Assembly (NCBI GenBank): GCA_031373745.1 | Contig: JANMNH010000116.1 | Location: 5,728 to 69,727 of the forward strand | Direction of reading: 5' to 3' | Length of the DNA stretch: 64,000 nt | Origin: Hyphomicrobium sp. | Lineage (GTDB): Bacteria > Pseudomonadota > Alphaproteobacteria > Rhizobiales > Hyphomicrobiaceae | Made by a program: the position numbers and the translations under genes | Part shown: positions 13,239 through 36,200 of the stretch, one piece after another | How positions within the stretch are numbered: the stretch's first letter is position 1 | Layout: each line of letters begins with the position of its first letter | Notes under the pieces: model-generated | The model's input: only the letters and a program-made list of their open reading frames with translations | The model's database searches: none | Told to the model about the DNA's origin: nothing

Positions 13239-14242
13239 ACCCGGTAGAATTCGCGGTACCACTGCACGAAGCGGTGAATGCCGTCTTCAATCGTTGTGGA
13301 TGGTTTGAAGCCGACGGCAGCAGTTAATGCATCGACGTCGGCATAGGTCCTCGGCACGTCGCCGGGCTGGGCAGGCAGCAGTTTGCGCTTGGCCGGGCGG
13401 CCCGTTTCTTTTTCAATGAGCGAGATGAAGTATTCGAGTTCTACCGGCGCGTTGTTGCCGATGTTGTAAAGCCGATACGGCGCGCTTGAGGTTGCGGGCG
13501 AGGGGGCATCGCTCGACCAATTGGGATCCGGCGCGGCTACTTGGTCCAGCGTGCGCACGACACCCTCGACGATATCGTCGATGTAGGTGAAATCGCGCGC
13601 GTGGTGACCGGCGCTGAAAACGTCGATCGGTTCGCCGGCGAGAATTTTCTTCGTAAAAATGAAGAGCGCCATATCCGGCCGGCCCCAGGGGCCGTAGACG
13701 GTGAAAAAGCGCAAGCCCGTCATCGGCGTACCGTATAGGCTGGCATATGAGTGCGCCATCAGTTCGTTGGCTTTCTTGGTGGCGGCGTAAAGGCTCAAGG
13801 GGTGATCGACGGGATCTTCGGTGCGAAACGGCATCGTTGTGTTGGCACCGTAGACGGAACTCGACGACGCGAACACGCAATGCTCGACGGCGTTTTGGCG
13901 GCAGCCCTCTAGAATGTTCAAGAAGCCCTGGATATTGGCATCGATATAAGCGTGCGGGTTTTCGAGCGAGTAACGCACGCCGGCTTGCGCGGCGAGATTG
14001 ATCACGCGGCCGAAGCGCTCTTCGGCAAATAGAGTTTGCATCGCGTTGCGATCGGCAATGTCGGCTTTGACAAAGCGAAAACCGTTGCGGCCTTCGAGGC
14101 GGGCGAGGCGCGCTTCCTTTAGGCGCACGTCGTAGTAGGCATTCATGTTGTCGAGGCCGACCACCTCGTCGCCGCGGTCGAGCAAGACTTTGCTGATGTG
14201 AGAGCCAATGAAACCGGCCGCGCCGGTGACGAGAATTTTCAT
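13235..14242 (-). CDS. UDP-glucuronate 4-epimerase (NAD-dependent epimerase, LpsL/Cap1I-like)
   Basis: 'TGAAGFIG', '[15 protein letters not shown]', '[11 protein letters not shown]', '[15 protein letters not shown]'. Confidence 0.88.
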
Positions 14243-14407
14243 AAGTCTTCCTGGTGTTTCTCGGGGCCGTGGACGCCCTCAATGGCCGGACGCGGCGATC
14301 ATGGTGCCGCATAACAGACATTTTGCGGGCATGCCAGGGGCGATAGCGTCATCCGCCCTTGCGGTGCGCACGCCGCCTGGACTATCAGCGGCGTGAAGGA
14401 TCGCGCG

Positions 14408-16888
14408 ATGAAGTTTTCCACCCAACTGCCGATCGATACCGTGCTTGGCGCCGTGATGGCAGCACTGACGGACGCCGGCCGTGCCGTGCTTGTAGCGCCG
14501 CCCGGCGCGGGCAAGACCACGCGGGTGCCGCTGGCGCTGCTCGATGCGCCGTGGCTCGGCGCGGGCAAGATCGTCGTGCTGGAGCCGCGCCGTATAGCAG
14601 CGCGCGGAGCAGCCGAGTTCATGTCGGCCACGATGGGCGAGAAACTTGGCGGTATTGTCGGCTTGCGGGCCCGGTTGTCTTCCAAAGTTTCGGCAGCCAC
14701 GCGTGTCGAGGTTATCACCGAAGGCGTGTTCACGCGCATGATCCTCGACGATCCGGAATTGACGGGCATAGGCGCCGTACTGTTCGACGAGTTTCATGAG
14801 CGGTCGCTCGATGCCGACTTGGGGTTGGCGCTTGCACTTGAAGCACGCGCCGGATTGCGTCCGGATTTGAGATTGCTCGTCATGTCGGCAACGCTCGATG
14901 GGGCGCGTGTAGCAAGGCTGTTGAACGATGCCCCTGTGATCGAGAGCGAGGGCCGGGCGTTTCCGGTCGAAACGCGTTATTTAGGCCGCGCGTCGCAACG
15001 CATCGATGACGACATGGCGGCAGCTGTGCAAAAGGCGTTGCGCGACGAGACGGGATCGATCCTGGCGTTCTTGCCGGGGCAAGGCGAAATCCTGCGCGTG
15101 GCGGAACGCCTGCGCGAGCGCGTCAGCGACCCAGTAGTCGATATCGCGCCGCTCTATGGCGCGCTTGATATGGGCGCGCAGGATCTCGCCGTGTCGCCGG
15201 CAAGGCCAGGGCGGCGCAAAGTCGTGCTGGCGACATCGATTGCCGAAACTTCGATTACGATCGAGGGCGTACGCGTTGTGATCGATAGCGGGCTTGCGCG
15301 CGTTCCGAGATTCGAGTCTGACGTGGGCGTCACACGATTAGAGACCGTGCGCGTGTCGCGCGCCTCGGCCGATCAGCGCCGCGGGCGTGCGGGGCGAACG
15401 CAAGCCGGCATTTGTTACCGGTTGTGGGATGAGCCTGAAACGCAAGGCCTCGTGCCATTTGCGGAACCGGAAATCAAGTCGGCCGATTTGTCGAGCTTGC
15501 TGCTCGACTGCGCCGAATGGGGCGCACCCGATCCTAGAACCCTATCGTGGCTCGATCCGCCGTCCGAAGGCGTCATCGCGGCGACGCGCGAAGAGTTGCA
15601 GGACATCGGCGCGCTTGACGACACAGGGCGCATTACCGCCGAGGGGCGCCGGCTTAGAGCCTTGCCGTTGCCGCCGCGCTTGGCGCGCATGCTGGTTGCA
15701 TCGGTTGCACATGGGGCGGAACTGCGCGCGGCGATGATAGCGGCCGTCCTCGTCGAGCGCGGTATGGGCGGCAACGATATCGATTTGGGGCTTCGGCTCG
15801 AAAGTTTTGCGCGCGATAGATCGCGGCGCGCGGAAGATATGCGGAGACTCGCGTTTGGTTGGGCGAAAGCGGCTGGTTCCGGATCGGCGCGGGTACAGGA
15901 TGACGGGATATCGACAGCGGGACTGCTGGCGCTCGCCTATCCCGATCGAATTGCTAAATCGCGCGGCGCGCCCGGACAATTTCTACTGGCTAATGGACGT
16001 GCCGGAAACATCGACGTCAAAGAGCTGTTGGCGCGCGCGCCGTATCTTGTTGTTGCGGAAATGCAAGGCAAGGCGGCGGCGACGCGTATCGTTCTGGCCG
16101 TTGCGGCGGACGAAGCGGACGTGATGAACTTTGCATCCGCTCGGATCGAGGAGAACGACGAATTAAGTTTCGACGCGGCCTCCGGTTCCGTGCGTGCGAA
16201 ACGCACGCGAAGGCTAAGTGCGATTACGTTCTCAAGCGCGCCGCGGCCGCTGCAGAAGGACGACAATGTTTCCGTTGTTCTGGCGGCCGGCATTGCGCGG
16301 CTTGGAGCAGGGAAACTGCCTTGGACAAAAGCGCAAGCGCAGTTACGCGAGCGCGTGGCTTTCTTGACCAAGGCGGGCTTGACCAAGGCAGGCGGCGAAT
16401 GGCCCGATCTCTCGGACGAAGGCTTAAGCGCGAACAATTGCGCGTGGCTGCAACCCTACCTCGTTGGCAAATCGCGCGTTGGCGACATCGCGGCGGATGA
16501 TTTAGGTAGCGCGCTCGATGCCCTGTTGCCTTGGAACATGCGGCAGCGATTGGAGACGGAAGCGCCGACGCATTTCGAAGCCCCGACGGGCAATCGCCAC
16601 GCACTCGATTACGAAGGACCGGGCGCACCGGCGTTGCACATTCGCGTGCAGGAATTGTTCGGGCTCAAGCAGCATCCCGCAATTGCCGGCGGGCGCTTGC
16701 CGTTGACGCTGAATTTGTTGTCGCCCGCGCACAGGCCAATTCAGATCACGCGCGATCTGCCGGGCTTCTGGGCAGGGTCATGGGCGGCGGTGAAAGCCGA
16801 TATGCGCGGGCGCTATCCAAGGCACGTCTGGCCCGACGATCCGGCGAATGCCGTCCCGACAGCGCGTGCGAAGCCGAGGGGGACGTGA
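14408..16888 (+). CDS. hrpB: ATP-dependent RNA helicase HrpB
   Basis: 'APPGAGKTTRVP', 'DEFHERSL', 'MSATLD', 'ATSIAETSITI', 'QRRGRAGR', C-terminal 'DLPGFWAGSWAAVKADMRGRYPRHVWPDDP'. Confidence 0.95.
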   Translation: MKFSTQLPIDTVLGAVMAALTDAGRAVLVAPPGAGKTTRVPLALLDAPWLGAGKIVVLEPRRIAARGAAEFMSATMGEKLGGIVGLRARLSSKVSAATRVEVITEGVFTRMILDDPELTGIGAVLFDEFHERSLDADLGLALALEARAGLRPDLRLLVMSATLDGARVARLLNDAPVIESEGRAFPVETRYLGRASQRIDDDMAAAVQKALRDETGSILAFLPGQGEILRVAERLRERVSDPVVDIAPLYGALDMGAQDLAVSPARPGRRKVVLATSIAETSITIEGVRVVIDSGLARVPRFESDVGVTRLETVRVSRASADQRRGRAGRTQAGICYRLWDEPETQGLVPFAEPEIKSADLSSLLLDCAEWGAPDPRTLSWLDPPSEGVIAATREELQDIGALDDTGRITAEGRRLRALPLPPRLARMLVASVAHGAELRAAMIAAVLVERGMGGNDIDLGLRLESFARDRSRRAEDMRRLAFGWAKAAGSGSARVQDDGISTAGLLALAYPDRIAKSRGAPGQFLLANGRAGNIDVKELLARAPYLVVAEMQGKAAATRIVLAVAADEADVMNFASARIEENDELSFDAASGSVRAKRTRRLSAITFSSAPRPLQKDDNVSVVLAAGIARLGAGKLPWTKAQAQLRERVAFLTKAGLTKAGGEWPDLSDEGLSANNCAWLQPYLVGKSRVGDIAADDLGSALDALLPWNMRQRLETEAPTHFEAPTGNRHALDYEGPGAPALHIRVQELFGLKQHPAIAGGRLPLTLNLLSPAHRPIQITRDLPGFWAGSWAAVKADMRGRYPRHVWPDDPANAVPTARAKPRGT

Positions 16889-16889
16889 G

Positions 16890-18011
16890 TTACGGCTCGC
16901 TATAAACCGCAAGTGTTTCGGCTACGATGCGCGAGAGAGTGAACTCGGCTTCGACGCGCGCGCGCCCGGCGGCGGCGAGCCGCGCGCAAAGAACTGGATC
17001 AGCGATCATGCGGTGCAGGGCAGCGGCAAGCGCGTGCGCGTTGCGGGCGGGAACGAGAAGGCCGTTGACATCGTGCTGGACGATTTCCCGGCAGCCGGGA
17101 ACGTCGGTTGTGACGATGGGACGGGCGGCCGCTGCAGCTTCCAAAAGGGCTTTGGGTAACCCCTCGCGGTACGAGGGCAGACAGACGATGGTTGCGTCAG
17201 TAAGGACGGCCGCCATGTCGTCGCGCCAGCCGAGCGCGGTGACGAGCCCTTCGCGCACATAGGCATCGATCTCAGATTGGGTGAGCGATCCGGGATTGAA
17301 AGGGTCCGGCGCACCGGCGAGAATGAATTCGGCGCTGATGCCGTTGCGTTTCAAGAGACGGGCAGCTTCGATGAATTCGATCACGCCCTTGTCGCGCAGC
17401 AGACGTGCCGGCAAGACGATGCGCGGGCGTCCGGCGGGCGGCGGGGTGACGTTGAAATCCGAGAGGTCGACACCCGAGCCGCGAATGAGGCGAATGCTCG
17501 CTGTCTTTGCGAGTTGCGAAGAAATGAGTTGCGCGCGGTCGTCGCGGTTTTGAACGATGACGCGCGAATGTTTCGACGATAGTGCAGTTCTGAGGGCGGC
17601 ACGCACGGCCGGACGCAGTATTCTTGCTTTGGTGCTCTCAGACGTGAAAACATAGCCAAGCCCCATGATGGCATTGACGACGCGAGGCACGCGGGCAATG
17701 CGCGCGGCAACGGAGCCGTAGAGCACGGGCTTCATGGCGACGTGATGCACCACGTCGGGCTTTTCGCGGCGGTAAATCGCCGTCAGCTTCGCGATTGTTG
17801 CGCCGTCGCGGAGCGGGTTGAGGCCGGAGCGGTCGAAATCTATCGGGATCAGTTTCAGGCCTGCGTTGGAGATGACAGCGCCGTGCTTCCCGAGTTTAGT
17901 TACGACGCTGACGTCGTAGCCGGCGTCGCGCGCGGCTTGGGCAAGCGCGAGGCGGTGCGAGACGAAATACCAGTCTTCGGTGACGAGATAGAGAAGTTTC
18001 TTTTTGGTCAT
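16890..18011 (-). CDS. Glycosyltransferase family 4
   Basis: 'VTEDWYFVSHRLALA', 'SYREGLPKALLEAAA', 'DVPGCREIV'. Start at 18011 gives an ATGA overlap with the upstream amidotransferase gene. Confidence 0.9.
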   Translation of the reverse strand: MTKKKLLYLVTEDWYFVSHRLALAQAARDAGYDVSVVTKLGKHGAVISNAGLKLIPIDFDRSGLNPLRDGATIAKLTAIYRREKPDVVHHVAMKPVLYGSVAARIARVPRVVNAIMGLGYVFTSESTKARILRPAVRAALRTALSSKHSRVIVQNRDDRAQLISSQLAKTASIRLIRGSGVDLSDFNVTPPPAGRPRIVLPARLLRDKGVIEFIEAARLLKRNGISAEFILAGAPDPFNPGSLTQSEIDAYVREGLVTALGWRDDMAAVLTDATIVCLPSYREGLPKALLEAAAAARPIVTTDVPGCREIVQHDVNGLLVPARNAHALAAALHRMIADPVLCARLAAAGRARVEAEFTLSRIVAETLAVYSEP

Positions 18012-19960
18012 GCGGCTCCCTGCCGTTCCCGGTCGAGCCAAGACTGGAACATGAGAATGACCCAAAGCGGATAGTGCATGTTGCGCGTGCCGTCGAGATG
18101 ATCGCTCCAAGCCTTGCGGATGGGTGCGGCGTGGAAGAAGCCGTCATTGGTCAGGCGCTTTTCGGCGAGCAGGTCTTCGGCCCAATCGCGCAAGGGGCCG
18201 CGCAGCCAAGCGTCGAGCGGAATGCCAAAGCCCATCTTCGGGCGCTCAATGAGGTGGCGCGGCACGTGGCGGAAGAGGATTTCGCGTAGCGGCCATTTGC
18301 TCTGGCCCTCGTGGCGTAGAATATTCAGCGGGAGTGATGCTGAAAATGAAACGAGGCGATGATCGAGGAGGGGCACGCGCGTTTCAAGGCTGACCGACAT
18401 GGCGGCTCGATCGACTTTGGCGAGGATGTCGTCCGGCAGATAGCGTACGAGATCGTCGTGCATCATGCGGCGCACGGGATCGAAATCGTGCGGCAGCCCG
18501 TTCGTGCGGCCAAGTTCCGGTTCATGCCCGCCAATGACGATGTCGCTCGGGCTTTGCCAGTGCGAAACGAGCACGCGATAAACGTCGTCCAGCGAGTTCA
18601 AGGCGGCAACGCTCGCGCCTTTAACAAGCCGGTCTCCCGGTCGCTCGATGCGATAGCGCTGCGGCAAGAGGTTTGTTGCAGGGCGGAGCATCCGGTTGAG
18701 TGCTTCAGGACCGGCCGCTGTAACGGCATTTGCGATCGTGCGCCGGAGCGGCGCCGGGATGCGGCGCAGCCGGTTCCAGGTCTTTTGTGCCAATGCGTAG
18801 CGCGTGTACCCGCAAAAAAGTTCGTCGCCGCCGTCGCCGGAAAGCGCGACCGTGACGTGGCGGTGCGCGAGTTCGGATACGAGAAGTGTTGGAATTTGTG
18901 AACTGTCGGCGAAGGGTTCCGAATAGACAGAGGCGAGACGCGGAACGGTAGCAAGTGCATCGGCCTCGGTGACATAGAGTTCCGTGTGGTCCGTGCCGAG
19001 GTGCCGGGCGACGGCTTTGGCATGGGGAGCTTCGTCATAGCCCTGTTCTCGAAAGCCGATTGAGAATGTTTTGACCGGCCGCGTACTCATCGTTTGCATG
19101 AGCGCGACGACGGCCGATGAGTCGATGCCGCCCGAGAGAAACGCGCCAAGGGGAACGTCGGAGATCATTTGGCCGGAGAGAGATTGGCGCAGCAAGCGTT
19201 CGGTTTCATCCGCTGCTCCTTTCGCGCTGCCGGTGAACGGACTGGAGGCCGCGTTGGCGATCTCGCGCGTCGCATCCCAAAAGCGCGCGTGGAGCGGTTC
19301 GCCGCCGCTTTTGATTTCGAGAATGCAGCCGGGCTCGAGCTTTTTGATGCCGCGATAAATGGAATGCGGCGCGGGGATGCTGTTGTAGCGGAGAAGAAGT
19401 GTGAGCGCGCAGCGATCAATTTCGCCTTGCCAGGATGGGTGCTGCTTCAGCGCCGCAAGATCGGAGCCAAACAGAAAGACGCCGCCTTGATTTCCGTAAT
19501 AGAGCGGCTTTTCGCCGAGCCGGTCGCGGGCAAGCGTGAGCGTTCGTGACTGGCGGTCGAAGACGGCAAGTGCGAACATGCCGGCGCAACGCATGAGTGC
19601 GGCACTCGTGCCCCAGGCTTCGATGGCCGCAAGCAAGACTTCGGTGTCGGAGTGCCCGCGCCACGTGGGGGCGAGGCCCGAGGCTTCGAGATCAGCGCGC
19701 ACGACTGCGAAATTGTAGATCTCGCCGTTAAAGGCGATGACGAAGCGCCCGCTTTGAGAGATCATAGGCTGATGGCCGGCGGGCGTAAGATCGATGATGG
19801 ACAAGCGGCGATGACCGAGCGCCAGACCGGATGCTTGGTCGACGAATGTGCCGCTGTCGTCCGGTCCGCGATGGCGAATGGCGTCCGACATGCGCTTGAC
19901 AATGGCTTCGCTGGCGGAGGCGGGCCCGCTCGATCCTAGAAAGCCCGCGAAACCGCACAT
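18008..19960 (-). CDS. asnB: Asparagine synthase-family glutamine amidotransferase (polysaccharide-associated AsnB/WbpS type)
   Basis: N-terminal 'MCGFAG', 'HRRLSIID', 'FLSGGIDSS', 'ALSGDGGDELF', 'KVDRAAMSVSLETRVPLLD'. Confidence 0.9.
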   Translation of the reverse strand: MCGFAGFLGSSGPASASEAIVKRMSDAIRHRGPDDSGTFVDQASGLALGHRRLSIIDLTPAGHQPMISQSGRFVIAFNGEIYNFAVVRADLEASGLAPTWRGHSDTEVLLAAIEAWGTSAALMRCAGMFALAVFDRQSRTLTLARDRLGEKPLYYGNQGGVFLFGSDLAALKQHPSWQGEIDRCALTLLLRYNSIPAPHSIYRGIKKLEPGCILEIKSGGEPLHARFWDATREIANAASSPFTGSAKGAADETERLLRQSLSGQMISDVPLGAFLSGGIDSSAVVALMQTMSTRPVKTFSIGFREQGYDEAPHAKAVARHLGTDHTELYVTEADALATVPRLASVYSEPFADSSQIPTLLVSELAHRHVTVALSGDGGDELFCGYTRYALAQKTWNRLRRIPAPLRRTIANAVTAAGPEALNRMLRPATNLLPQRYRIERPGDRLVKGASVAALNSLDDVYRVLVSHWQSPSDIVIGGHEPELGRTNGLPHDFDPVRRMMHDDLVRYLPDDILAKVDRAAMSVSLETRVPLLDHRLVSFSASLPLNILRHEGQSKWPLREILFRHVPRHLIERPKMGFGIPLDAWLRGPLRDWAEDLLAEKRLTNDGFFHAAPIRKAWSDHLDGTRNMHYPLWVILMFQSWLDRERQGAA

Positions 19961-19995
19961 TGCAGCAATGTCCTAAGCGATGTCTTGAATGCAGG

Positions 19996-21282
19996 TCAGA
20001 GCCGCCAGAGCCTTGCGCCCGTGGCGGTGACGGCAGCGGGATCGTAGGCGCATTTGACGTCGGCGAAAATACCCTTGGGATTGAGTTTGGACATGAGCTT
20101 GGCGGGCCCCATGTCGATGTAGGCCTTATGCGATACGGCGGCGACGATGGCGTCTGCTTTGGGAAGCTTGTCCCAGGGTGTGAGCGCGATGCCGTATTCG
20201 TGCTCGCACTCGCCGCTGTCGGCAATCGGATCGTGGGCGTGAACCGTGCAGCCGTAACTTTGTAATTCGCGCACCACGTCGATGACCTTGCTGTTGCGGA
20301 TGTCGCGGCAATCTTCTTTGAAGGTCATGCCGAGCACGATGACGTTGGCGCCTTTGATGGCGAAGTCCTGGGCGATCATTTGCTTGACCGTTTGCTCGGC
20401 AACAAACTGCCCCATGCCGTCGTTGATGCGCCGGCCGGCGAGAATGACTTGCGGGTGATAGCCGAGTTGCTCAGCCTTGTGCGTCAGATAGTAGGGATCG
20501 ACGCCGATGCAGTGACCGCCGACGAGGCCGGGACGAAAGGGCAGGAAGTTCCACTTAGTGCCGGCGGCTTTAAGAACTTCGAGCGTATCGATGCCGACTT
20601 TTTTGAAGATGACGGCAAGCTCGTTCATGAGGGCGATGTTCAAATCGCGCTGCGTGTTCTCGATGACTTTCGCGGCTTCGGCAACTTTGATGCTGCTTGC
20701 CGGGTAGACGCCGGCCTTAATGATGGCGCCATAAACTTCTGAAACTTTCTTGAGCGTTTCGGGCGTGTCGCCGGACACGACTTTGACGATTTTTGTAAGC
20801 GTGCGTTCTTTGTCGCCCGGGTTGATGCGCTCGGGCGAATATCCGGCGAAGAAATCTTTCTTCCACTTGAGGCCGGAGATGCGCTCGATGATGGGAATGC
20901 AGATTTCTTCCGTGGCGCCGGGGTAGACGGTAGATTCGAATACGACGATCGAACCCGGCTTGATGTATTTGCCGACGGTTTCCGAACTTTTGACCAGCGG
21001 CGTAAAATCGGGGTTGTTCACGCTATCTACGGGCGTCGGCACGGCAACGACAATAAAGTTTGCATTCGAAATGATTGCGGGATCGGTGGAGCAGACGAGA
21101 TGCTTCGCGGCCTTGAGTTCCTCGCTCGTCATTTCGCCGGCGGGATCGATATGCTTTTTGTAGGCCGCGACTTTTTCTGCCGAGAGATCGAAGCCATAGG
21201 TTTCGTAAGCTTTGCCGAACTCGATCGCGAGCGGCAGGCCGACATACCCCAGACCGATGACGGCAATTTTGTCAGTCGACAT
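19996..21282 (-). CDS. UDP-N-acetyl-hexosamine 6-dehydrogenase (WbpO/TviB family)
   Basis: 'IGLGYVGLPLA', 'YSPERINPGDK', 'AEAAKVIENTQRDLNIAL', 'GLVGGHCIGVDPYYL'. Confidence 0.9.
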   Translation of the reverse strand: MSTDKIAVIGLGYVGLPLAIEFGKAYETYGFDLSAEKVAAYKKHIDPAGEMTSEELKAAKHLVCSTDPAIISNANFIVVAVPTPVDSVNNPDFTPLVKSSETVGKYIKPGSIVVFESTVYPGATEEICIPIIERISGLKWKKDFFAGYSPERINPGDKERTLTKIVKVVSGDTPETLKKVSEVYGAIIKAGVYPASSIKVAEAAKVIENTQRDLNIALMNELAVIFKKVGIDTLEVLKAAGTKWNFLPFRPGLVGGHCIGVDPYYLTHKAEQLGYHPQVILAGRRINDGMGQFVAEQTVKQMIAQDFAIKGANVIVLGMTFKEDCRDIRNSKVIDVVRELQSYGCTVHAHDPIADSGECEHEYGIALTPWDKLPKADAIVAAVSHKAYIDMGPAKLMSKLNPKGIFADVKCAYDPAAVTATGARLWRL

Positions 21283-21595
21283 TTTCTCAATGGCTCCAGT
21301 TTCGGCGCAGGGGGTCGGAACAAGGGACAGGGTTAAAAAGCGGCCTTCAAGGTTAAAGGCAAAGATGAACGCCTACAGGGGCGGGCCTGGACGGTCAACA
21401 CTCGGGCTGCCGTAAGGGAGAGCTTTTATGTCGAAAAATGCCGTGTGCATGGCGATTCTTGTGACGGGCCGGCTGCGGCAAAACATGCTTAAGGCAGAAC
21501 CCCAAAAATAGAATTTTGGGGATTTTATCCCCGGTCACCCCGGAGCGCATATCCTGCCCGGCACTAGGGAGGAGGTATGAGCAGAAAGGCCGGCG

Positions 21596-24178
21596 ATGGT
21601 TGATACGCCAAATCTTGGGTTGTCCTATATTCTGGCGGCCCAGTCACAAAAACACGTTCCCCACAACGAAGCGATACGGGCGCTCGATGCCGTTGTGCAG
21701 CTGTCGGTGCTCGACCGGAGCTTGACGGCGCCGCCTGCGACGCCGGCGGAAGGCAATCGCTATATCGTCGCCAGTTCGCCAACCGGCGCGTGGCTGGGGC
21801 AGGCTGAAAAAATTGCGGCCTACCAGGATGGCGCCTGGATCTTCTACATGCCGAGAGAGGGCTGGATCTCGTGGGTCGCAGATGAAGATATTGCCGTGGC
21901 ATTCGATGGCGCTGCATGGACGGCACTTTCGACCGGTGGCGGTGGGGGCGGCGTGACCGACCACGGGCTCTTGACGGGCCTTGGCGATGACGATCATGTG
22001 CAGTATCTCAACAACGCGCGCGGCGACGCGCGCTATACGCCGCTCAATCCCCCGACGCTCGGCATCAACGCGACCGCCGACACGACCAACCGTTTGGCGG
22101 TTGGGTCGGCTGCATCGCTGTTCTCGCATACCGGCACCGGCGGCCATCAGATCAAGGTCAACAAGGCCGCCGCGGCGGACACCGCGAGCTTCCTGTTTCA
22201 AGATAACTTCTCCGGGCGTGCCGAAATCGGGCTCACCGGAGACGACGATTTCCATTTCAAGGTCAGCGCCAACGGCACCACGTTCAACGAAGCCATCATC
22301 ATCAACCGCGCGACCGGCGCGTGCGCATTTCCGAACACGTCATTTGGCGTCGCCGACGGCGACAAAGGCGATGTCACGGTCACAGGCTCTGGCGCAACGT
22401 GGACGGTTGACGCCGATGCGGTGACGAATGCGAAACTCGCCGACGTGCCGACCGCGACGCTCAAAGGCCGCGTGACGGCGGCAACCGGGGACCCGGAAGA
22501 CCTGACGGTGGCGCAAGCGAAGGCGCTGCTCAATTTGACCGGCACGAACTCGGGCGATCAAACCTCGATTGTTGGCATTACCGGCACCATTGCTCAGTTC
22601 AACACAGCTTGCACGGACGCGGATTTCGCGACCGGCGGCGGCACGATAACCGGAACAAGCACCGGCACCAATACCGGCGATCAGACCATCACGCCGACCG
22701 GCGCAGTGACGGGGTCCGGTACGGGCTCGTTCGCAACAACGATTGCCGCGAATGCCGTCGATAATACCAAGCTCGCCGACGTTCCGACAGCGACGCTCAA
22801 AGGCCGCGTGACGGCGGCAACCGGGGACCCGGAAGACCTGACGGTGGCGCAAGCGAAGACGCTGCTCAATTTGACCGGCACGAACTCGGGCGATCAGACG
22901 TCCATCGTTGGTATTACCGGTACGCTCGCGCAATTCAACACGGCTTGCACCGACGCGGATTTCGCGACCGGCGGCGGAACGAGCACCGGCACGAACACTG
23001 GGGATAACGCGGTCAACACGCTCTACAGCGGACTTGTCACCAACGCGACGCACACGGGCGACGTAACCGGCGCCACTGCTCTTACGATTGCGAGCAACGC
23101 GGTGACGACGGCCAAGCTGGCCGACAACAACGTCACTCTGGCGAAGATCGAAGACGCCGCCGCTTTTACGCTTCTGCTGCGTAATTCTGCGACAACCGGC
23201 GACCCGGCCTACGTCAAAATCAGCGCCTTGACCGACCGCCTCGCGTTCGGCGCGGGCGACAAGATCATGATCGAGGAATCGACGGGAGAGCTGCGCAAGA
23301 TCGATTTTAGCGATCTTCCTGGCGCGAGCGGCGGCATCTCAAACGGCTATGCGACAATTACGGACGGGACCACGCCGGCCAGCGCCGTGGGTGCCGATAC
23401 CTTTAAGCTCCGGGCGGGTGCCGGTATCGCCGTTGCGACGCAAAACAACGACGCGACGCATGGCGATAACGCGTTAATTAGTTTGGACCCGCGCCGCAAT
23501 CCGTTCTTCTCTTGCGACTTCTGGAGCATTCAGCTGGCTCAGGGCGACTTCCAAATAGCTGCAATTTCGACAGGCGCGATCACAACGGCACCGGCGGCCG
23601 GTGTGATCGATGGTAGTCATCCGGGCGTGATCCTTGTCCGCTCGTCAACGACGGCCAACAGCGGCGTACAAGTGATGAGCGGGCAGACCGGCGCCGTGGC
23701 GGGCGCACTCCTCCGCATTGGCGGGGGCGAGCAATTCGATTGTGTCTTCCGCACGCCCGCGGCCTTAACAAACCTGACGTACCGGATGGGCTGGCTCGAT
23801 ACGGTGACGAGCGCCGACGCGGTGGACGGCATCTATTTCGAAATGCCTGCCTCCGGCGCTATTGTTGGCAAGACCTCAAGCAATTCGACGCGCACGACAT
23901 CGGGGACCATCGCCACCCTGGTCGCGAGCACCTGGTATCACGCCCGTGCCGTCGTGAACGCAGCTGCGACGGGCGTGGATTTCTTCATCTTTAGCGACGC
24001 CGGAACGCAGCTCGGCACGGTAAATATCGCGACCAACATCCCGACCGCTTCGGGCCGCGAGCTTGGTTGCGGCGGCGTGTTCACGAACAGCGGCACGTCG
24101 GCTGTCGATATTGTTAATCTCGATTACATGGCGTTTGGAACGCCGGGGCGGGTCTTGGTGAGAGGGGCGTTGAGTTAG
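21596..24178 (+). CDS. DUF2793-domain tail-fibre/adhesin-like protein with internal repeats
   Basis: N-terminus 'TPNLGLSYILAAQSQKHVPHNEAIRALDAVVQLSV...PAEGNRYIV...GAWIFYMPREGW' is DUF2793-like. Gly/Thr/Ala-rich repeated shaft follows, then a beta-rich C-terminal domain. Confidence 0.75.
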   Translation: MVDTPNLGLSYILAAQSQKHVPHNEAIRALDAVVQLSVLDRSLTAPPATPAEGNRYIVASSPTGAWLGQAEKIAAYQDGAWIFYMPREGWISWVADEDIAVAFDGAAWTALSTGGGGGGVTDHGLLTGLGDDDHVQYLNNARGDARYTPLNPPTLGINATADTTNRLAVGSAASLFSHTGTGGHQIKVNKAAAADTASFLFQDNFSGRAEIGLTGDDDFHFKVSANGTTFNEAIIINRATGACAFPNTSFGVADGDKGDVTVTGSGATWTVDADAVTNAKLADVPTATLKGRVTAATGDPEDLTVAQAKALLNLTGTNSGDQTSIVGITGTIAQFNTACTDADFATGGGTITGTSTGTNTGDQTITPTGAVTGSGTGSFATTIAANAVDNTKLADVPTATLKGRVTAATGDPEDLTVAQAKTLLNLTGTNSGDQTSIVGITGTLAQFNTACTDADFATGGGTSTGTNTGDNAVNTLYSGLVTNATHTGDVTGATALTIASNAVTTAKLADNNVTLAKIEDAAAFTLLLRNSATTGDPAYVKISALTDRLAFGAGDKIMIEESTGELRKIDFSDLPGASGGISNGYATITDGTTPASAVGADTFKLRAGAGIAVATQNNDATHGDNALISLDPRRNPFFSCDFWSIQLAQGDFQIAAISTGAITTAPAAGVIDGSHPGVILVRSSTTANSGVQVMSGQTGAVAGALLRIGGGEQFDCVFRTPAALTNLTYRMGWLDTVTSADAVDGIYFEMPASGAIVGKTSSNSTRTTSGTIATLVASTWYHARAVVNAAATGVDFFIFSDAGTQLGTVNIATNIPTASGRELGCGGVFTNSGTSAVDIVNLDYMAFGTPGRVLVRGALS
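22433..22981 (+). repeat. In-frame direct repeat: two ~213-nt copies (22433-22645, 22769-22981), 336-nt period
   Basis: Both copies encode KLADVPTATLKGRVTAATGDPEDLTVAQAKxLLNLTGTNSGDQTSIVGITGTxAQFNTACTDADFATGGGT. Confidence 0.95.
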
Positions 24179-24385: not shown

Positions 24386-25462
24386 ATGAAGATTGTAGTC
24401 ACAGGTGGAGCCGGCTTTATCGGCTCGGCGGTTTGCCGGTTGCTGGTAAGGGATCTTGGCGTCGATGCCGTCAATATCGACTGTCTGACCTACGCCGCAA
24501 ACTTGACGTCTCTGGAGCCGATCGCGGACCGGCCCAACTATTCCTTCTACGAACTCAATATCTGCAATCAGAAATCCGTGACCGACATTCTGCGGCTCGA
24601 GCAGCCCGACGCCATCATGCACTTGGCGGCGGAAAGTCATGTCGATCGCTCTATTACGGGCTCGGCAGCGTTTATCGAGACGAATATCGTCGGCACTTAT
24701 TCCATGTTGGAGGCGGCTCGGAGTTACTGGGCGGAGTTGCCCAAACGGCGCAAAGAAGCTTTCCGGTTCCTTCACATCTCGACCGACGAAGTGTTCGGCA
24801 GTCTCGGTGACGAAGGCTACTTTAGCGAAACAACCGCCTACGATCCAAGCTCTCCGTACTCGGCAAGCAAGGCGGCGTCCGATCACTTGGCGCTCGCGTG
24901 GCACCGCACATACGGCTTGCCGGTCGTTCTAACGAACTGTTCGAATAATTACGGTCCCTACCACTTTCCGGAAAAGCTCATTCCTTTGATGATCACCAAC
25001 GCCATGATGGGACGCGAATTGCCGGTCTATGGCATGGGGACCAACGTGCGCGACTGGCTGCACGTCGAAGATCACGCGCGCGCTTTGTTTCTAGCTGTCA
25101 CTAAGGGCATTCCGGGCGAGCGCTATGCCGTCGGCGGCCGCAGCGAGAAAAGCAATTTGCAGGTCGTGCACAAAATCTGCGAAATGCTCGATGACTTGCG
25201 GCCGCGCGAGGACGGCACGTCGCACATGTCGGCGATCAATTTTGTCGAAGACCGCCCGGGACACGACTATCGCTATGCAATCGACTCGACGAAGATCGAG
25301 CGCGAACTCGGCTGGAGCGCAAAGGAAACTTTTGAGACGGGATTGCAGAAGACCGTCGAGTGGTACGCCGCGAACGAGATGTGGTGGATGCCGCTAAGGC
25401 TCAAAACATACAGCGGCGAGCGGCTGGGACTGATCAAGAAAAAGAAGACGGCAGCCGCCTAA
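24386..25462 (+). CDS. rfbB: dTDP-glucose 4,6-dehydratase
   Basis: 'TGGAGFIGS', '[12 protein letters not shown]', 'HISTDEVFG', 'YSASKA', '[12 protein letters not shown]'. Confidence 0.95.
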
Positions 25463-25486: not shown

Positions 25487-26359
25487 ATGAAAGCTATTAT
25501 TCTCGCCGGAGGCAGCGGCACGCGCCTCTACCCGATGACTCTTACGGTTTCCAAGCAAATTCTGCCCGTCTACGACAAGCCCCTCATCTATTATCCGTTA
25601 TCCATATTGATGCTGGGCGGCGTGCGCGACGTTTTGGTGATTTCAACCCCGCGCGATCTGCCGGGTTTTGCCGCGCTCCTCGGCGACGGCCGCCAATGGG
25701 GGCTAAATATCTCGTATGCCGAACAGCCGCGTCCCGATGGGCTGGCGCAAGCCTTCATCATCGGCGAGCGCTTCATCGGCAAGGATCCGTGCGCGCTCGT
25801 GCTCGGCGACAACATCTTCTTTGGGCATGGGCTGTCGGATGTCGTGCGCCAGGCCTTCGAGCCGAGGCGGGGGGCAACGATCTTTGCGCACCACGTATCG
25901 GATCCCGAGCGCTACGGCGTTGTTGCGTTCGATGCGCGGGGAGGGCCGTCGTCGATCGAAGAGAAGCCGGCGCAGCCGAAATCGAATTGGGCCGTTATCG
26001 GGCTCTATGCCTACGACAACGACGTGGTGCAAATTGCCAAGTCGCTGCGCCCGTCGCCACGCGGGGAACTTGAAATTACGAGCGTTAACGACGCCTATTT
26101 GAAACGCGGAGATCTGGCGGTCCAGAAAATGGGCCGGGGCTTCGCCTGGTTCGATACCGGCACGCCGGATAGCCTGCTGGAAGCCGCCAACTATGTTGCG
26201 ACAATTGAGAAACGCCAGGGGCTAAAGATTGCGAGCCCCGAAGAAATTGCCGTCCGGCAGGGCTTTATTACACCGGGTGATTTGGAGCGTTTGATTGCGC
26301 AACGCTACGCCAAAAACGATTATGGCAATTATCTCCGGGGCGTTCTGGCCGAATTTTGA
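25487..26359 (+). CDS. rfbA: Glucose-1-phosphate thymidylyltransferase
   Basis: '[12 protein letters not shown]', '[11 protein letters not shown]', 'GLAQAFIIG', 'RGELEIT', 'WFDTGT'. Confidence 0.95.
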
Positions 26360-26499
26360 GCCAGCCCATGAGTGACCCCTAGCGCGGACGATTTTGTGAG
26401 CCTATAGGGTGCTCCAGCAAATTGTGACAGGGCTTGGCGAATCCCAACTGTTTTAGTTGGGGAGCCCGATCACTTGTCCGATCATTTGGAGCTGCAAAC

Positions 26500-27186
26500 T
26501 TGCAAGGACCGGCGAATTTTCTGATCGTCGACGATCACCCGCTCTTTCTTGAGGCGCTCCAGCGCGCCATTGCCTCTGCGCTTCCGGATGCGTCGACCGT
26601 CGAAGCGGCGTCGATAGCTGAAGCCAAGACCGTGCTGCAGGGCCGGGCGCGCTTCGATGCCGTGCTACTCGATCTGTCGATGCCGGGCACGCGCGGCTTC
26701 GATGGGCTCTTAGAGTTGCGTGGTCTCCATCCCAAGACACCGATCGTAGTTGTGTCGGCGCTTGAGGACCCGAGGATCGTCCAAGAAGTGATGGGGTATG
26801 GAGCGGCTGGATTTATTGCGAAGTCTGCAAGCCGCGACGAAATTGCCTCGGCACTCAAAGCGGTTCTGGAAGGTTCCATTACGCTTCCGAAAGGCTATCA
26901 GCCGCCGGGAGCGGCGGTGAGCGCGCCGGGAAAATCTGATTTGGCGCAGCGCCTGACCGCATTGACGCCGAAGCAGTTGAGCGTGCTGCACATGCTGCGC
27001 CAGGGTTTGTTGAACAAGCAGATCGCGCATGAACTCAAGATCGAAGAGACGACCGTCAAGGCGCATGTCTCCGAGATCTTGCGCAAGCTCAACGTGGCAT
27101 CGCGCACGCAAGCCGTGATTGAAGTGCAGAAGATCGATTTCGATACAATTCTTGGAGCTTCTGCGGCCGACGGCGAAGCCGATTAG
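26500..27186 (+). CDS. LuxR/NarL-family response regulator (FlhR/ErbR(AgmR)-like)
   Basis: Receiver 'IVDDHPLF...LLDLSMPG', HTH 'LTPKQLSVL...GLLNKQIAHEL...TVKAHVSEILRKL..SRTQAVI'. Start placed at TTG 26500 after a GGAG SD (ORF open from 26434). Confidence 0.85.
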   Translation: MQGPANFLIVDDHPLFLEALQRAIASALPDASTVEAASIAEAKTVLQGRARFDAVLLDLSMPGTRGFDGLLELRGLHPKTPIVVVSALEDPRIVQEVMGYGAAGFIAKSASRDEIASALKAVLEGSITLPKGYQPPGAAVSAPGKSDLAQRLTALTPKQLSVLHMLRQGLLNKQIAHELKIEETTVKAHVSEILRKLNVASRTQAVIEVQKIDFDTILGASAADGEAD

Positions 27187-27197
27187 GCCCGCTTTTT

Positions 27198-28565
27198 CTA
27201 CGACAGCATGTGTTGCATCAAAGCGCGCAATTCTGCCGGTTTCACCGGCTTGTGAAGAACTTCGCAATTGTGCCGGCGGGCGGCGTTCGCCGTTTCAGGC
27301 GAATGATCGGCCGTTATCAAGATGGCCGGGATCGCTGCGCCGCGAGCCGCTCTGATCTGGGCGACGGCGTCGAGCCCCGATTGCCCGCCATCGAGATGGT
27401 AGTCGGCTAGAATGATCGCCGGGTTGAGTTTGCTGTCCGAGATCAATTCTGAAATGTCGTCGAGATCGCGGGCAAGGCGCACGTCCGCACCCCAGCGTAT
27501 GAGCAAGGATTGCATGGCTTCGAGCACAATGAGATCGTTGTCGATGACGATGACGGGAATGTCGAGACGGCCATAGGCCGGAACCGGCGGCGTGTCGGCG
27601 GCTGCGCGGTTTGTAAGGGTTGAAGGCGCAGCAGACGGCACCGTGATCGCGAAACGCGTGCCGTGCCCAACGCGGGAACAGAGTTCAAGCGGATGGCCGA
27701 GGGATTCCGCCATGCGTTTGACGATTGACAGACCAAGTCCGAAACCGATGCCGCCCGTCGTCTCGGATGCGGCGCCGCGCTGGAACTCTTCAAAAATTCT
27801 ATCCCGCTCGGCGGACGGAATGCCGGGACCCGTGTCCCACACCTCAATGCGCACCGATGGGCCGCGCTGACGCGAGGCAAGAAGCAAACGGCCTTTGCCG
27901 GTGTAATTGGTCGCGTTGGCGATCAGGTTTTGCAAGATCCGGCGCAGCATCAACGGATCCGACTTGACGATAGCGCCGGTCGCGCGCCACGTCAGGGCAA
28001 GGCCCTTTTTGCGAGCGAAGGGCTGGAATCCGGCAATCAATTGCTCGAACACGTCGCCGAGGGCGATGGGTTGAATGGCGGGTACGAAGACGCCGGCTTC
28101 GAGCTTTGAAATATCGAGAATGGAGCTGAGAAGATCCTCGATCGTGGACAAAGCGCGCGCGACGTTGCCGGCGAGGCGCTGATTGGCAAGCTGCTGCTGT
28201 GCGTCCGAGAGTTCGCCAAGCGACAACCGGGCCGCATGGAGCGGTTGAAGGAGATCGTGGCCGACAGCTGTGATGAAGCGCGTTTTGAAGCGATTGGCGC
28301 GATCGGCTGCGTCGCGTGCGCTCTTCAATTCCTGGTTGGCGCGCTCAAGATTGGAAAGAGCGTTCTTAAGTTCTTCGGTACGGGCATTGATCTGGTTTTC
28401 CAGGCCAATGGCCGTCTGGAACAAAGAATAGGCGTTGGCTTGGCGGTCGGTCGAGCGCTCGACGCGCTGCATGAGGGCATTGTTAATTTTCGTCAGCTTC
28501 TCGATGCGCCGCTCGGCATCGTCGCTGGAGGGAGACCGCGTTTGATGGGGAGGCAGTTCGGACAT
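27198..28565 (-). CDS. Cytoplasmic hybrid histidine kinase (NahK/ErcS/FlhS-like)
   Basis: N-terminal coiled coil 'KINNALMQRVERS...YSLFQTAIGLE', H-box 'GHDLLQPL', 'DTGPGI', 'GFGLGLSIV', C-terminal receiver domain; no TM or PAS domain seen. Confidence 0.88.
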   Translation of the reverse strand: MSELPPHQTRSPSSDDAERRIEKLTKINNALMQRVERSTDRQANAYSLFQTAIGLENQINARTEELKNALSNLERANQELKSARDAADRANRFKTRFITAVGHDLLQPLHAARLSLGELSDAQQQLANQRLAGNVARALSTIEDLLSSILDISKLEAGVFVPAIQPIALGDVFEQLIAGFQPFARKKGLALTWRATGAIVKSDPLMLRRILQNLIANATNYTGKGRLLLASRQRGPSVRIEVWDTGPGIPSAERDRIFEEFQRGAASETTGGIGFGLGLSIVKRMAESLGHPLELCSRVGHGTRFAITVPSAAPSTLTNRAAADTPPVPAYGRLDIPVIVIDNDLIVLEAMQSLLIRWGADVRLARDLDDISELISDSKLNPAIILADYHLDGGQSGLDAVAQIRAARGAAIPAILITADHSPETANAARRHNCEVLHKPVKPAELRALMQHMLS

Positions 28566-28569
28566 GAGG

Positions 28570-29742
28570 CTAAGTGCCCTCGCTGGTTTTGCCGAAGGCT
28601 ATGCCGGTTAGTGTTTGGTTCAAGTGCATGGCATTGAATTGTTCGCCGTAAGTGTGGAAGCCGACTACGCCGAAACGGCGGTATATTTCATCGACGCTGT
28701 GGCGGACCTGGCGGCTTTCGGCATCCAGCCGCCGCAGGATGCAATCGAAGCCGATGATGAGATCGGTGCCGCCGAGTTCCGTTTCGATGCCTTCGATCGT
28801 ATCAAGTGTCGAACGCACCATGTCGCGGGGGCGGGCGACTGTGAACACGAGGCCTTCGTCGATGGCGCAGAAAAAGGACAAGCTACCGTCCGGGTTCATA
28901 TTGCGGATCGAACGGCAGTAGTAATCGCCACCGACTTTGACGACGAGCGGATAGGACGCAAAGCTGAAGGGGCCAAGTTCATTGGGAAGAAGCCCGATTG
29001 CGGCGGCGTACTCGCGCGCGGCGGGTTCTGCGTTCAACTCGTAAACGATGCGGTTTTCGGTATCGGCGGCGGTGACGACAAGCTTGATCGGAGTCGGTTC
29101 GAAGTTCTGCGTTTTGAAGATGCGGAACGGGAACGCGCTTTCAATAACAAAGAGCAGCGCGCTGGCTTGCGCAATACTGCCGTTATGGACCAGTGCCGTG
29201 CGGCGGAAGGCGAGTCCGTCACCAGATGAGCCGCCGATCAGTTCTATGTCTCCCAAGCCCCAGTGCACCGCTGCGGTTAGGGCTTCTTCCTTGTTGGAAA
29301 GCCCGTCCACCAGCATCAAAGCGAATGTGTTGCCCATGGCGGACCCGTTGTGGCCATCGCCGATCTGGACCTTGAGGCGGCGAGCGATGTCGGTGGCGCG
29401 CTTCACACCCGGTTCGTCGGCGACGGAGATAACCTCGCTCAAGACGCGAAAACCGGTAACTGGGAAAGCAATGAGGACTAGGCCGCCTTGCATCATGCCG
29501 AGAGGGCCGACTTCGCCGGCCGTGGAACAGCCCGAAATAGGGACCTCGGGGAAAGCCGATTGGAGGGCGCCGACAAGAAGTTCGGGATCATGCTCGATCG
29601 AGAAGAAGGCGATGATGTGCTGGAAGCGTCCGCCGCCGAGTTCGGCCTTTGCAGCGGCGACGCTATCGCGGGTAGACGAGAGGGAACTTGCAAACACGCG
29701 GATTCCGCACGCGGCTAACGTCGACTTGCTGGTTGTAGACAC
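28570..29742 (-). CDS. FIST-domain sensory protein (NosP-like)
   Basis: 'GCSTAGEVG', 'LVDGLSNKEE', 'GGSSGDG', 'NAEPAAREYA', 'FCAIDEGLV', 'GFDCILRRL', 'GFHTYGEQ..HLNQTLTG'. Confidence 0.9.
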   Translation of the reverse strand: MSTTSKSTLAACGIRVFASSLSSTRDSVAAAKAELGGGRFQHIIAFFSIEHDPELLVGALQSAFPEVPISGCSTAGEVGPLGMMQGGLVLIAFPVTGFRVLSEVISVADEPGVKRATDIARRLKVQIGDGHNGSAMGNTFALMLVDGLSNKEEALTAAVHWGLGDIELIGGSSGDGLAFRRTALVHNGSIAQASALLFVIESAFPFRIFKTQNFEPTPIKLVVTAADTENRIVYELNAEPAAREYAAAIGLLPNELGPFSFASYPLVVKVGGDYYCRSIRNMNPDGSLSFFCAIDEGLVFTVARPRDMVRSTLDTIEGIETELGGTDLIIGFDCILRRLDAESRQVRHSVDEIYRRFGVVGFHTYGEQFNAMHLNQTLTGIAFGKTSEGT

Positions 29743-29847
29743 GGGAAACCTTGCTCCTTGGCACCCTGCATACCAGATAAAACCGGTAAGTGGGGTTGCA
29801 ACCCGAAGAGGCTGGCATAGGAGAGGTAGCCTGGCAATGTCGCGAGG

Positions 29848-30696
29848 TTAACCCCAAAGGAGGGGATCGTTCGGGGTCAAAGTGCGGTTCAGGCGGATAC
29901 CGGCGCGGCCCGCCTTGTACCAGGCGACGGTACCCGTAAAACGGCGGCCGGACGCGAGTTCGACCGATAAGACTTGGCCGGGATCGAATGACGGTACCTG
30001 CTCGAGACCGAAACCACCGGCCGAGACGTCGCGCACGTAGGCCTGAGTGATGCGCCCTGCGGCGGTTATGCGGGCGCTTTGACCGAGCATGCGGCGGGCG
30101 GCATTGCGCCGTTGGGGTAAAGGCGGGAGGAAAGGCTGGCCTTTAGCGTCGATGCAGGGCGTATCGCCAGAGGCAGCGGCGCCCAGAATGCGCCCTAGGA
30201 CGCCTGCGTTCAGCATATAGAGTTCGGGCAGCTCATGCTCTGTCTCGGAATTCAGGTGCCTGACGGCCGCCGCAGCGCTGCGGCACGTGCCGCGCCAGGC
30301 ACTCGTCAGGGTCATGTGGTGCAGTGCACCAGCGCGATCCATGCCAATTGCGTTGGCATCAGTGAAATAGCGCTGCATTTGGCGGCGGGCAGGCCCGAGA
30401 TCGGCAAAGAAGGCGGCCACCGACTCGGCCGCATTGACCGATATCCCGGCTTCAGCCGCCCAACGCCGGAATCCCGAAAGTACGGCGGGATCGCGGGGCA
30501 AATACATCTGAATTTCGGCCTGGGTGCGCACCGTGCCCGGCACATGCAGGGCGTTGGCGAAACTGGCGATGGTGGCCGTCAAGAGCGCAGCCGTGTGCGT
30601 GTCGGTGACGATCGTTATGAGCAGCGGATTTGGCTCGTCGTGCTGCTGGGAAATCCAGAAATGCGTGTCGCTTCGGAGTCTGGATCTGAGTTTCAT
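29848..30696 (-). CDS. PilZ-domain protein with an uncharacterised N-terminal region
   Basis: C-terminal RxxxR ('RRNAARR') and DxSxxG ('DVSAGG') motifs followed by a beta-barrel-like sequence. Start placed at ATG 30696 after AAAGGTGAG. Confidence 0.75.
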   Translation of the reverse strand: MKLRSRLRSDTHFWISQQHDEPNPLLITIVTDTHTAALLTATIASFANALHVPGTVRTQAEIQMYLPRDPAVLSGFRRWAAEAGISVNAAESVAAFFADLGPARRQMQRYFTDANAIGMDRAGALHHMTLTSAWRGTCRSAAAAVRHLNSETEHELPELYMLNAGVLGRILGAAASGDTPCIDAKGQPFLPPLPQRRNAARRMLGQSARITAAGRITQAYVRDVSAGGFGLEQVPSFDPGQVLSVELASGRRFTGTVAWYKAGRAGIRLNRTLTPNDPLLWG

Positions 30697-30832
30697 GGGT
30701 ACGCTCACCTTTGAAGAACACAATCAAAGGTAGTACAAAAACCCTAATTTGGGGTAACGATCCCCGAAACGATGATTGAAATAAGCTCATTTAATTGTTC
30801 AACAAAATCAACAGTGAGGATTTTTACTAAAG

Positions 30833-36177: not shown

Positions 36178-36200
36178 GTGAAGTGCCCTGTTGACCCGTC

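Follow-up and report, generated by a model that had tools for sequence, protein, structure and literature searches.

The subject of this work is a tail-fibre gene in a stretch of Hyphomicrobium sp. DNA of 64,000 nucleotides, which was analysed as a whole and is called the window here; the assembly from which it comes is called the source genome. Tail fibres of gene transfer agents (GTAs) decide which cells receive DNA, and to our knowledge such fibres have hardly been annotated beyond Rhodobacter. The gene lies between two groups of polysaccharide genes, one divergent from it and one directly 3' of it, and is preceded by a promoter-like element that we also find at the head of GTA clusters in relatives (Table 1). 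We consider it very probable that the gene encodes a GTA tail fibre that is now an intact orphan, left behind when the genes for the particle were deleted.

Table 1. Features of the fibre locus. Positions are those of the window, except for the last row, which gives contig and position in the source genome.
Feature	Position	Strand	Remarks
GalE/WbpP-like epimerase, left anchor	13235-14242	-	Pfam
HrpB helicase, left anchor	14393-16888	+	Pfam
Variable glycan cassette (GT4, AsnB, UDP-sugar dehydrogenase)	16890-21282	-	divergent from fibre
Family 4 glycosyltransferase (GT4)	16890-18110	-	Pfam
AsnB-type amidotransferase	18008-19960	-	Pfam
UDP-sugar 6-dehydrogenase	19996-21282	-	Pfam
GTA-type promoter box	21518-21561	+	starts ~70 nucleotides 5' of fibre ATG
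Tail-fibre gene (P0001), 860 residues	21596-24178	+	ATG start, internal stops absent
Conserved N-terminal anchor module, residues 1-250	21596-22345	+	rod and knob (DUF2793), Gly6 hinge, DHGxLTGLxDDDHxQY, ~100-residue domain
Shaft repeats, two tandem 336-nucleotide modules	22403-22665 and 22739-23001 (span 22403-23001)	+	third degenerate copy from 23084
SO2946-like, legume-lectin-like beta-sandwich, residues 674-843	23615-24124	+	presumed receptor-binding tip
RfbB	24386-25462	+	Pfam; with RfbA, first steps of dTDP-sugar pathway
RfbA	25487-26359	+	Pfam
LuxR-type response regulator, right anchor	26434-27186	+	
Hybrid histidine kinase, right anchor	27198-28565	-	
FIST protein, right anchor	28570-29742	-	
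Other promoter box sites, source genome	C96:8268; C12:50110; C3:45362; C96:82769; C55:2111; C112:91126; C119:12004	-; +; +; +; +; +; +	

Anchor, shaft and tip of the fibre protein

An earlier, sequence-only reading of the window had described a DUF2793 N-terminus, a set of repeated motifs and a beta-rich C-terminus, and all three descriptions agree with what profile, pattern and structure searches return. DUF2793 (PF10983) is matched at residues 23-108, over 86 of its 87 profile positions (Pfam E 2.7e-33; nucleotides 21662-21919). In PHROGs the N-terminus matches tail-fibre families and phage families of unknown function, and a search of NCBIfam with the fibre protein gave zero matches. Residues of about 3-119 align with residues 2-118 of the fibre of roseophage R4C (PDB 8GTC chain S, 8gtc_S), with an E value of 7.6e-9 for the single sequence and 1.5e-18 for the genus profile. 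In the R4C fibre, residues 1-35 form a rod and residues 36-117 a knob. The rod has an N-terminal extension that binds the megatron, the homologue of GTA protein g15, at a fibre-binding domain in the C-terminal part of the latter, and the R4C fibre is 30% identical to that of RcGTA, the GTA of Rhodobacter capsulatus (PMC10276861). The part that follows in our protein, residues ~113-250 with the hinge, the histidine- and aspartate-containing motif and the ~100-residue domain of Table 1, is kept genus-wide and is found also in Rhodobacter phage fibre proteins. Among members of the genus the anchor module as a whole is 55-92% identical, has 42 invariant columns and shows pairwise ratios of nonsynonymous to synonymous substitution (dN/dS) of 0.03-0.18. 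One change in the rod, P10S, is private to the source genome, at a position that is otherwise invariant.

Residues ~255-600, about 350 in all, make up a repeat shaft, whose two tandem modules are 87% identical over 263 nucleotides and 93% identical over 73 residues. Regular-expression searches recovered every motif that had been claimed, and in the claimed numbers: DHGLLTGLGDDDHVQYLNNARGDARY at residue 122, GDKGDVTVTGSGATWTVD at residue 255, TGTN(S/T)GD(Q/N) exactly four times (residues 315, 356, 427 and 464), (A/N)V(T/D)xxK(L/I)(A/E)D exactly four times (residues 275, 387, 502 and 512), TWYHARAVVNAAATGVDFFIF at residue 779 and TNIPT at residue 813. The TGTN and (A/N)V motifs recur because the 336-nucleotide module has been duplicated in tandem.

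The C-terminal domain belongs to the SO2946-like_C family (PF22237; Pfam E 1.9e-30 for residues 674-843). AlphaFold2 models the last ~190 residues as a beta-sandwich with a mean predicted local distance difference test score (pLDDT) of 88. The best Foldseek match of this model is 2a5z, the structure of SO2946 (E 6.7e-13, template modelling score 0.68-0.72), followed by dozens of legume lectins and the carbohydrate-binding module of a phage Dit protein. The same type of domain is found at the C-terminus of proteins with T4_gp9_10, Mtd_N, collagen, DUF5907, fn3 or beta-helix domains and appears to be a mobile fibre-tip module. From its legume-lectin-like fold and its place at the end of the fibre, we regard it as a putative carbohydrate-binding domain. 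Its dN is three to five times that of the anchor, with a dN/dS of 0.11-0.25.

Ties to the GTA

Rcc00171, the tail fibre of RcGTA, is a DUF2793 protein that RcGTA transfer requires; its gene lies at a distance from the GTA cluster, directly downstream of exopolysaccharide (EPS) genes (Hynes 2016, PMC5026251). Across Alphaproteobacteria, DUF2793 has been found to co-evolve with the genes of GTAs (Kogay 2024, PMC10883770). The statement of the sequence-only reading that DUF2793 proteins include GTA fibres encoded apart from the main cluster is right according to the first of these studies. Linked to Rcc00171 through Pfam DUF2793 and the R4C fibre, the Hyphomicrobium gene is the counterpart of the Rcc00171 gene and likely its orthologue.

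Two further ties to the GTA are new here. First, in at least six genomes that belong to the order but to other families (G038, G037, G040, G030, G033 and G027), the fibre gene starts 14-64 nucleotides after GTA g15. Second, fibre genes and GTA clusters share a promoter box. The box, AAAAACTTATCCCCGC-N15-CGTATCTT, lies ~70 nucleotides before the fibre ATG in 54 of the 56 genomes of the genus; in the window it comprises a degenerate -35 element, TTATCCCCG, at 21525-21533, a GC-rich dyad spacer and a -10-like TATCCT at 21550-21555. In the form CTTATCCCCG-N15-TATCTT it stands both ahead of the fibre and at the head of GTA clusters. A position weight matrix built from fibre-upstream sites only gave a single same-strand match at the GTA cluster head in 15 of 16 relatives (G008, G021 and 13 of 14 others). 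This match lies 2.3-2.8 kb 5' of the portal gene and was found in another family as well; the reversed-genome control (3.6 Mb) contained 0 matches of ≥18 bits and 3 of ≥14 bits. The shared box is strongly supported by sequence, and co-regulation of the fibre gene with the GTA head-tail cluster is a well-supported prediction from it: in relatives that still make the particle, the two would be turned on together, by what may be a GafA/GafYZ-like activator. Together with the R4C homology, these two ties bear out the earlier description of the gene as a GTA-type fibre set apart from the main cluster. The source genome has seven other box matches of ≥18 bits, several with spurious-looking downstream ORFs (open reading frames), two of them upstream of a 1328-residue AsmA-family protein and an RNase R-like protein; these sites may belong to a GTA-type regulon that has outlived the particle.

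Two observations on the leader of the fibre gene may be recorded here. At 21562-21603 a strong GGGAGGAGG Shine-Dalgarno sequence stands ahead of an 8-codon upstream ORF that overlaps the fibre ATG and is not kept in relatives. In relatives, a conserved GGGAGG lies ~30 nucleotides before the fibre ATG, near the transcript 5' end, which is expected ~33 nucleotides ahead of the ATG; it often lies in the loop region of a short hairpin (ACGAG-GGAGG-CTCGT).

In most of the 56 genomes of the genus that were examined, the fibre gene is found at one and the same place in the chromosome. The order there is cbb genes, HrpB, epimerase (-), fibre (+) and, after an interval, LuxR-type regulator, hybrid kinase, FIST protein and sulfatase. 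Either the divergent epimerase-fibre pair or the HrpB-fibre neighbourhood is kept in most of the genus, and the pair persists even in genomes whose wider surroundings are different. On both sides of the fibre, the set of inserted glycan genes varies across the genus. The site is fixed, separate from the GTA cluster and a hot spot for exchangeable glycan genes. The linkage of fibre to polysaccharide genes proposed from the single window accordingly holds across the genus; in principle it was already known, as a connection of Rcc00171 with EPS genes had been noted in 2016 (PMC5026251). HrpB, physically adjacent to the locus and a fixed neighbour of it genus-wide, is encoded by one of the host genes that co-evolve with GTA genes (Kogay et al. 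2024, PMC10883770).

This evidence also bears on whether the gene has anything to do with a GTA, as it could instead be a stray fibre gene stranded in a glycan island, the remnant of an unrelated prophage or tailocin. Its best phage matches are indeed fibre proteins of Rhodobacter phages, and the SO2946-type tip occurs on many phage fibre scaffolds. Such a remnant would not, however, be expected at one chromosomal site in most of the genus, behind the promoter box of the GTA cluster, or directly after g15 in other families. Nor is there an integrase, another phage gene or a tRNA nearby: consistent with the earlier statement that the window lacks capsid, terminase and integrase genes, a scan of 30 window ORFs turned up zero phage genes besides the fibre, the window has zero tRNA genes, and the GC content of the fibre gene resembles that of its surroundings. 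An origin from an unrelated prophage therefore seems extremely improbable.

Loss of the particle in the source genome

The source genome is a 150-contig draft, 98% complete with 2.7% contamination, and has one DUF2793 gene. Whole-genome profile searches gave no match to Phage-tail_3, HK97 capsid or Phage_sheath_1. The only portal match is a 585-residue ORF outside the window (C16:55705-57462; L003:10706-12463), of which residues 62-317 match Phage_portal (profile positions 3-250 of 321) and residues 331-430 match Rcc01698_C, the C-terminal domain of g15. This ORF joins ~320 N-terminal residues of the portal protein to the last ~275 residues of g15, with the fibre-binding domain retained. In blastn comparison with the close relative G008, the two halves lie 13.6 kb apart, with an overlap of ~4 nucleotides at the junction (C16:56640-56646), and contig C16 is collinear with G008 for ~8 kb to the left and ~10 kb to the right of it. 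The 15 G008 ORFs that fall wholly inside the deleted interval have no tblastn match anywhere in the source assembly. At the head of the cluster, the stretch that bears the promoter box in G008 is replaced in the source genome by ~2.4 kb with an IS1595 transposase (C16:51766-52671), and no GTA promoter box is left on C16. What is left at the cluster is an intact TerL and, downstream, a CHAP/GH108 peptidoglycan hydrolase. The source genome is unable to make a particle, having lost 13.6 kb from the middle of the portal gene to the last ~275 residues of g15.

The sequence-only reading had suggested kin-specific targeting by a GTA or a tailocin. A GTA cluster is indeed present in the genome, but only as a remnant, and neither a working GTA nor a contractile sheath accompanies it; an R-type tailocin is likewise unsupported, as Phage_sheath_1 had no match in the genome. 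The genome also has no second Rcc01698_C partner on which a fibre might dock, F-type tailocins not having been specifically searched for. The fibre cannot at present serve kin-specific GTA targeting in this genome. The fibre gene is intact and can probably still be transcribed, but its product is an orphan that lacks a particle to join. In all likelihood the loss is recent, and the gene would in time decay or be rescued by recombination.

The fusion ORF could also be read as an artefact of assembly or of a mixed population, in which a complete GTA cluster persists and the portal::g15 junction is a minority haplotype or a misjoin. The fragmentation and contamination of the draft leave room for this, and the junction, with its overlap of only ~4 nucleotides, is known from the assembly alone. 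Against it, C16 is collinear with G008 on both sides of the junction, and the 15 missing genes are on no other contig of an assembly that is 98% complete. The replacement by IS1595 of the promoter region is a separate change at the same locus, and GTA deletions have often arisen independently in the genus (G045, G049, G065 and G075, for example). We judge an artefact to be very unlikely, and retain the deletion as the explanation of the fusion ORF.

Junctions of a similar kind are seen elsewhere in the genus. G045 has its own junction of portal and g15 C-terminus (G045:C24:12303-12924), with other breakpoints: its portal part runs to residue ~245, and its g15 part begins at the position equivalent to residue 471. 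Deletion with the 3' end of g15 spared is a recurrent event, as G001, G065, G075 and G076 also keep only C-terminal pieces of g15.

Fibre survival and constraint across the genus

Among the 61 genus genomes in our set, 44 are of high quality; a capsid gene is found in 29 of these and DUF2793 in 43. The 15 capsid-less genomes comprise 11 with a complete fibre ORF (G000, G001, G010, G012, G045, G049, G065, G068, G070, G075 and G076; 12 of 16 if G011 is counted), one in which the fibre runs off a contig end (G060), two with a fibre pseudogene (G015 and G042) and one with no fibre (G052). The apparent frameshift pseudogenes of G024 and G051 are unreliable, as rpoC is also fragmented or frameshifted there. 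The GTA remnants vary among genomes, and since they differ, the GTA losses must be independent.

As a measure of constraint we took the ratio of terminal-branch lengths at codon positions 1+2 to those at position 3, on a fixed tree. For the anchor module this ratio is 0.115 across 28 genomes with a GTA and 0.109 across 11 without one, and private substitutions at invariant fibre sites are not enriched in the latter. The TerL remnants are likewise intact, with ratios of 0.195 (G000), 0.164 (G011) and 0.071 (G049) versus 0.07-0.38 in GTA-bearing genomes. Because terminase remnants, which are useless without a capsid, are equally constrained, recent loss explains the constraint on the fibre. The simplest reading is that the GTA deletions are young when set against the branch lengths, with loss probably recent, and that survival of the fibre reflects a time lag rather than a new function.

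A fibre kept by selection for some particle-free role, for example that of a lectin or adhesin set free when cells lyse, or of a soluble protein that blocks the GTA receptor, would account for several of the same facts. Most capsid-less genomes retain the complete ORF together with its promoter box; the anchor is no less constrained without a GTA than with one; the sister genomes G012 and G068, which lack any trace of a GTA, retain constrained fibres; and purified Rcc00171 blocks RcGTA transfer in R. capsulatus (PMC5026251). The terminase control, however, is as intact and as constrained in G000, G011 and G049, and we dropped the unrelaxed constraint on the fibre as a sign of new function for that reason. 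The fibre is lost or broken in three capsid-less genomes (G015, G042 and G052), its best-conserved part is the N-terminal module, whose rod is the predicted megatron-docking element, a pattern hardly to be expected of a free lectin, and in the source genome P10S has altered an otherwise invariant residue of the rod. Exaptation is, we think, quite unlikely. The domesticated adhesin that the sequence-only reading had offered as its alternative gains no positive support, the purifying selection on the fibre being matched by that on the terminase remnant.

Tip type and the glycan cassette

Clustering of the distal parts of the fibres gave several tip classes. The SO2946-type tip is intact in G000, G008, G010, G016, G043, G047, G066 and G070, and is found by tblastn behind frameshifts in G024 and G056. 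In eight of the nine genomes with readable flanks, this tip occurs together with the UDP-sugar dehydrogenase-AsnB-GT4 cassette. The cassette is seen only in genomes with this tip, and the sole mismatch between tip and cassette is G056. The sub-clade of these genomes also has members whose tip is of another type (G045, G007, G054 and G069), and they are without the cassette. In an rpoC tree, G066, which has both tip and cassette, is sister to G045, which has neither (bootstrap 98), and G008 is sister to G056 (bootstrap 100). Between G066 and G045 both flanks of the anchor module differ, the module itself being still alignable.

The mismatched genome was looked at separately. We considered whether G056 might have a different type of tip; tblastn ruled this out, as the same SO2946-type tip lies behind the frameshift. 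Its fibre (L065, G056:C15, 9956-12746) has a frameshift after the shaft and before the lectin tip, its GTA cluster is apparently intact, and a single different GT4 stands in place of the three-gene cassette.

The association of tip and cassette is real. Cassette and tip are less than 4 kb apart, and because of this proximity, co-transfer by linkage explains the association as well as functional matching does. A stronger proposal is that the two form a single exchangeable self-recognition block, in which the displayed sugar and the lectin that matches it would be inherited in one recombination, keeping GTA delivery to kin. In its favour are the co-occurrence in eight of nine genomes, the joint absence in close relatives of carriers (G066 versus G045, for example) and the frameshifted fibre of the one mismatch. 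We put this proposal forward tentatively and think it, on balance, rather unlikely. If it were true, orphan fibres would mark lineages that no longer produce particles and may still display the receptor. Of the co-variation of fibre and glycan genes that had been predicted from the window, then, the part concerning strains is supported, tip type being associated with the adjacent cassette, and the part concerning kin targeting in the source genome does not.

Other genes of the window

The neighbours named in the sequence-only reading, wbpO-asnB-GT4 on one side and rfbB-rfbA on the other, are as stated at the level of domains. RfbB and RfbA lie directly 3' of the fibre, an arrangement found throughout one sub-clade of the genus. 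Farther out, the window holds genes of the Calvin cycle, the epimerase, HrpB, the regulator, the kinase, FIST and PilZ proteins and genes of methylamine utilisation.

To the right of the locus, a LuxR-type regulator, a hybrid kinase, a FIST protein and a PilZ protein (26434-30723) form a block that is conserved in most of the genus; a regulatory tie of this block to the fibre locus is possible. Beyond it, 32775-43164 carries the N-methylglutamate route of methylamine use, with a glutamine-synthetase-like protein, three glutamate-synthase-like subunits and a sarcosine-oxidase-like dehydrogenase, genes that fit a methylotroph.

Discussion

In relatives that still make the particle, the fibre protein is predicted to form trimers. 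With its N-terminal rod and knob (DUF2793) it would attach to g15, the megatron of the baseplate, at the C-terminal fibre-binding domain of the latter, and the repeat shaft would bear the C-terminal lectin-like beta-sandwich, which may bind the surface polysaccharide of recipient cells.

Several points weigh against the view that the gene is a GTA fibre orphaned by deletion. First, the evidence for the deletion comes from one draft assembly in 150 contigs. Second, the AlphaFold2 model of the N-terminal 250 residues is poor (pLDDT 55), and the docking geometry is taken from sequence homology to R4C only. Third, GTA production by Hyphomicrobium and the place of the fibre in its particles are predictions from gene content. 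Finally, the retention of an intact fibre ORF and promoter in 11 of 15 capsid-less genomes could mean that the fibre has a role without the particle. We nevertheless hold to the orphaned GTA fibre as very probably the correct account.

Three findings go beyond routine annotation: a defined deletion that has orphaned the fibre, a GTA promoter box seen throughout the genus, and the association of tip with cassette. The locus supplies a clear Hyphomicrobium counterpart of Rcc00171. The conserved box would mark GTA-controlled genes in the genus and could help to trace the remainder of the regulon. The repeated loss of the particle (at least 15 of 44 good genomes are capsid-less), with the fibre mostly surviving, bears on the idea of "GTA cheaters", and the relation of fibre tip type to the adjacent glycan genes is an association that can be tested. 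The understanding of what a GTA fibre is remains unchanged by these findings.

Comparison with known systems

The nearest parallel is the RcGTA fibre, Rcc00171, which likewise has a DUF2793 N-terminus, a locus apart from the head-tail cluster, adjoining polysaccharide genes and a fast-evolving distal part. It belongs, however, to a host of another order; the Hyphomicrobium protein is much longer, with tandem repeats and an SO2946-type tip, and the source genome, unlike R. capsulatus, has no particle for its fibre to join. The fibre of roseophage vB_DshS-R4C, gp17 (Huang et al. 2023, PMC10276861), shares a homologous rod and knob, and both proteins end in a lectin-like beta-domain. In contrast, gp17 has only 230 residues, with the foot directly after the knob, whereas the Hyphomicrobium fibre adds the ~100-residue domain, a shaft of ~350 residues and a different tip, of the SO2946 type; the R4C gene, moreover, lies inside the structural gene module of the phage. 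For the tip, the C-terminal 170 residues match the family of SO2946 of Shewanella oneidensis (PDB 2A5Z; PF22237). The function of SO2946 itself is unassigned, whereas in the fibre the domain serves as a tip.

Two other systems resemble the locus in organisation. TspA (Rcc02623), the detachable tailspike of RcGTA (Bardy et al. 2026, bioRxiv 10.64898/2026.07.19.739414), is also a GTA accessory protein that is encoded at a distant locus and acts on polysaccharide, and binding of the activator 50-100 bp upstream of its start codon can be likened to the arrangement at the fibre gene, although TspA is an enzyme, a beta-helix depolymerase of a family other than DUF2793. The promoter box is closest to PgtaT and the GafYZ-dependent accessory promoters of Caulobacter crescentus (Tran et al. 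2024, PMC11150451). Although the Hyphomicrobium box (CTTATCCCCG) is defined by conservation alone, the two have in common a degenerate -35 element, a palindrome in a GC-rich spacer and a -10 element TATCTT(T), and in both, one type of promoter stands on the main cluster and on accessory loci.

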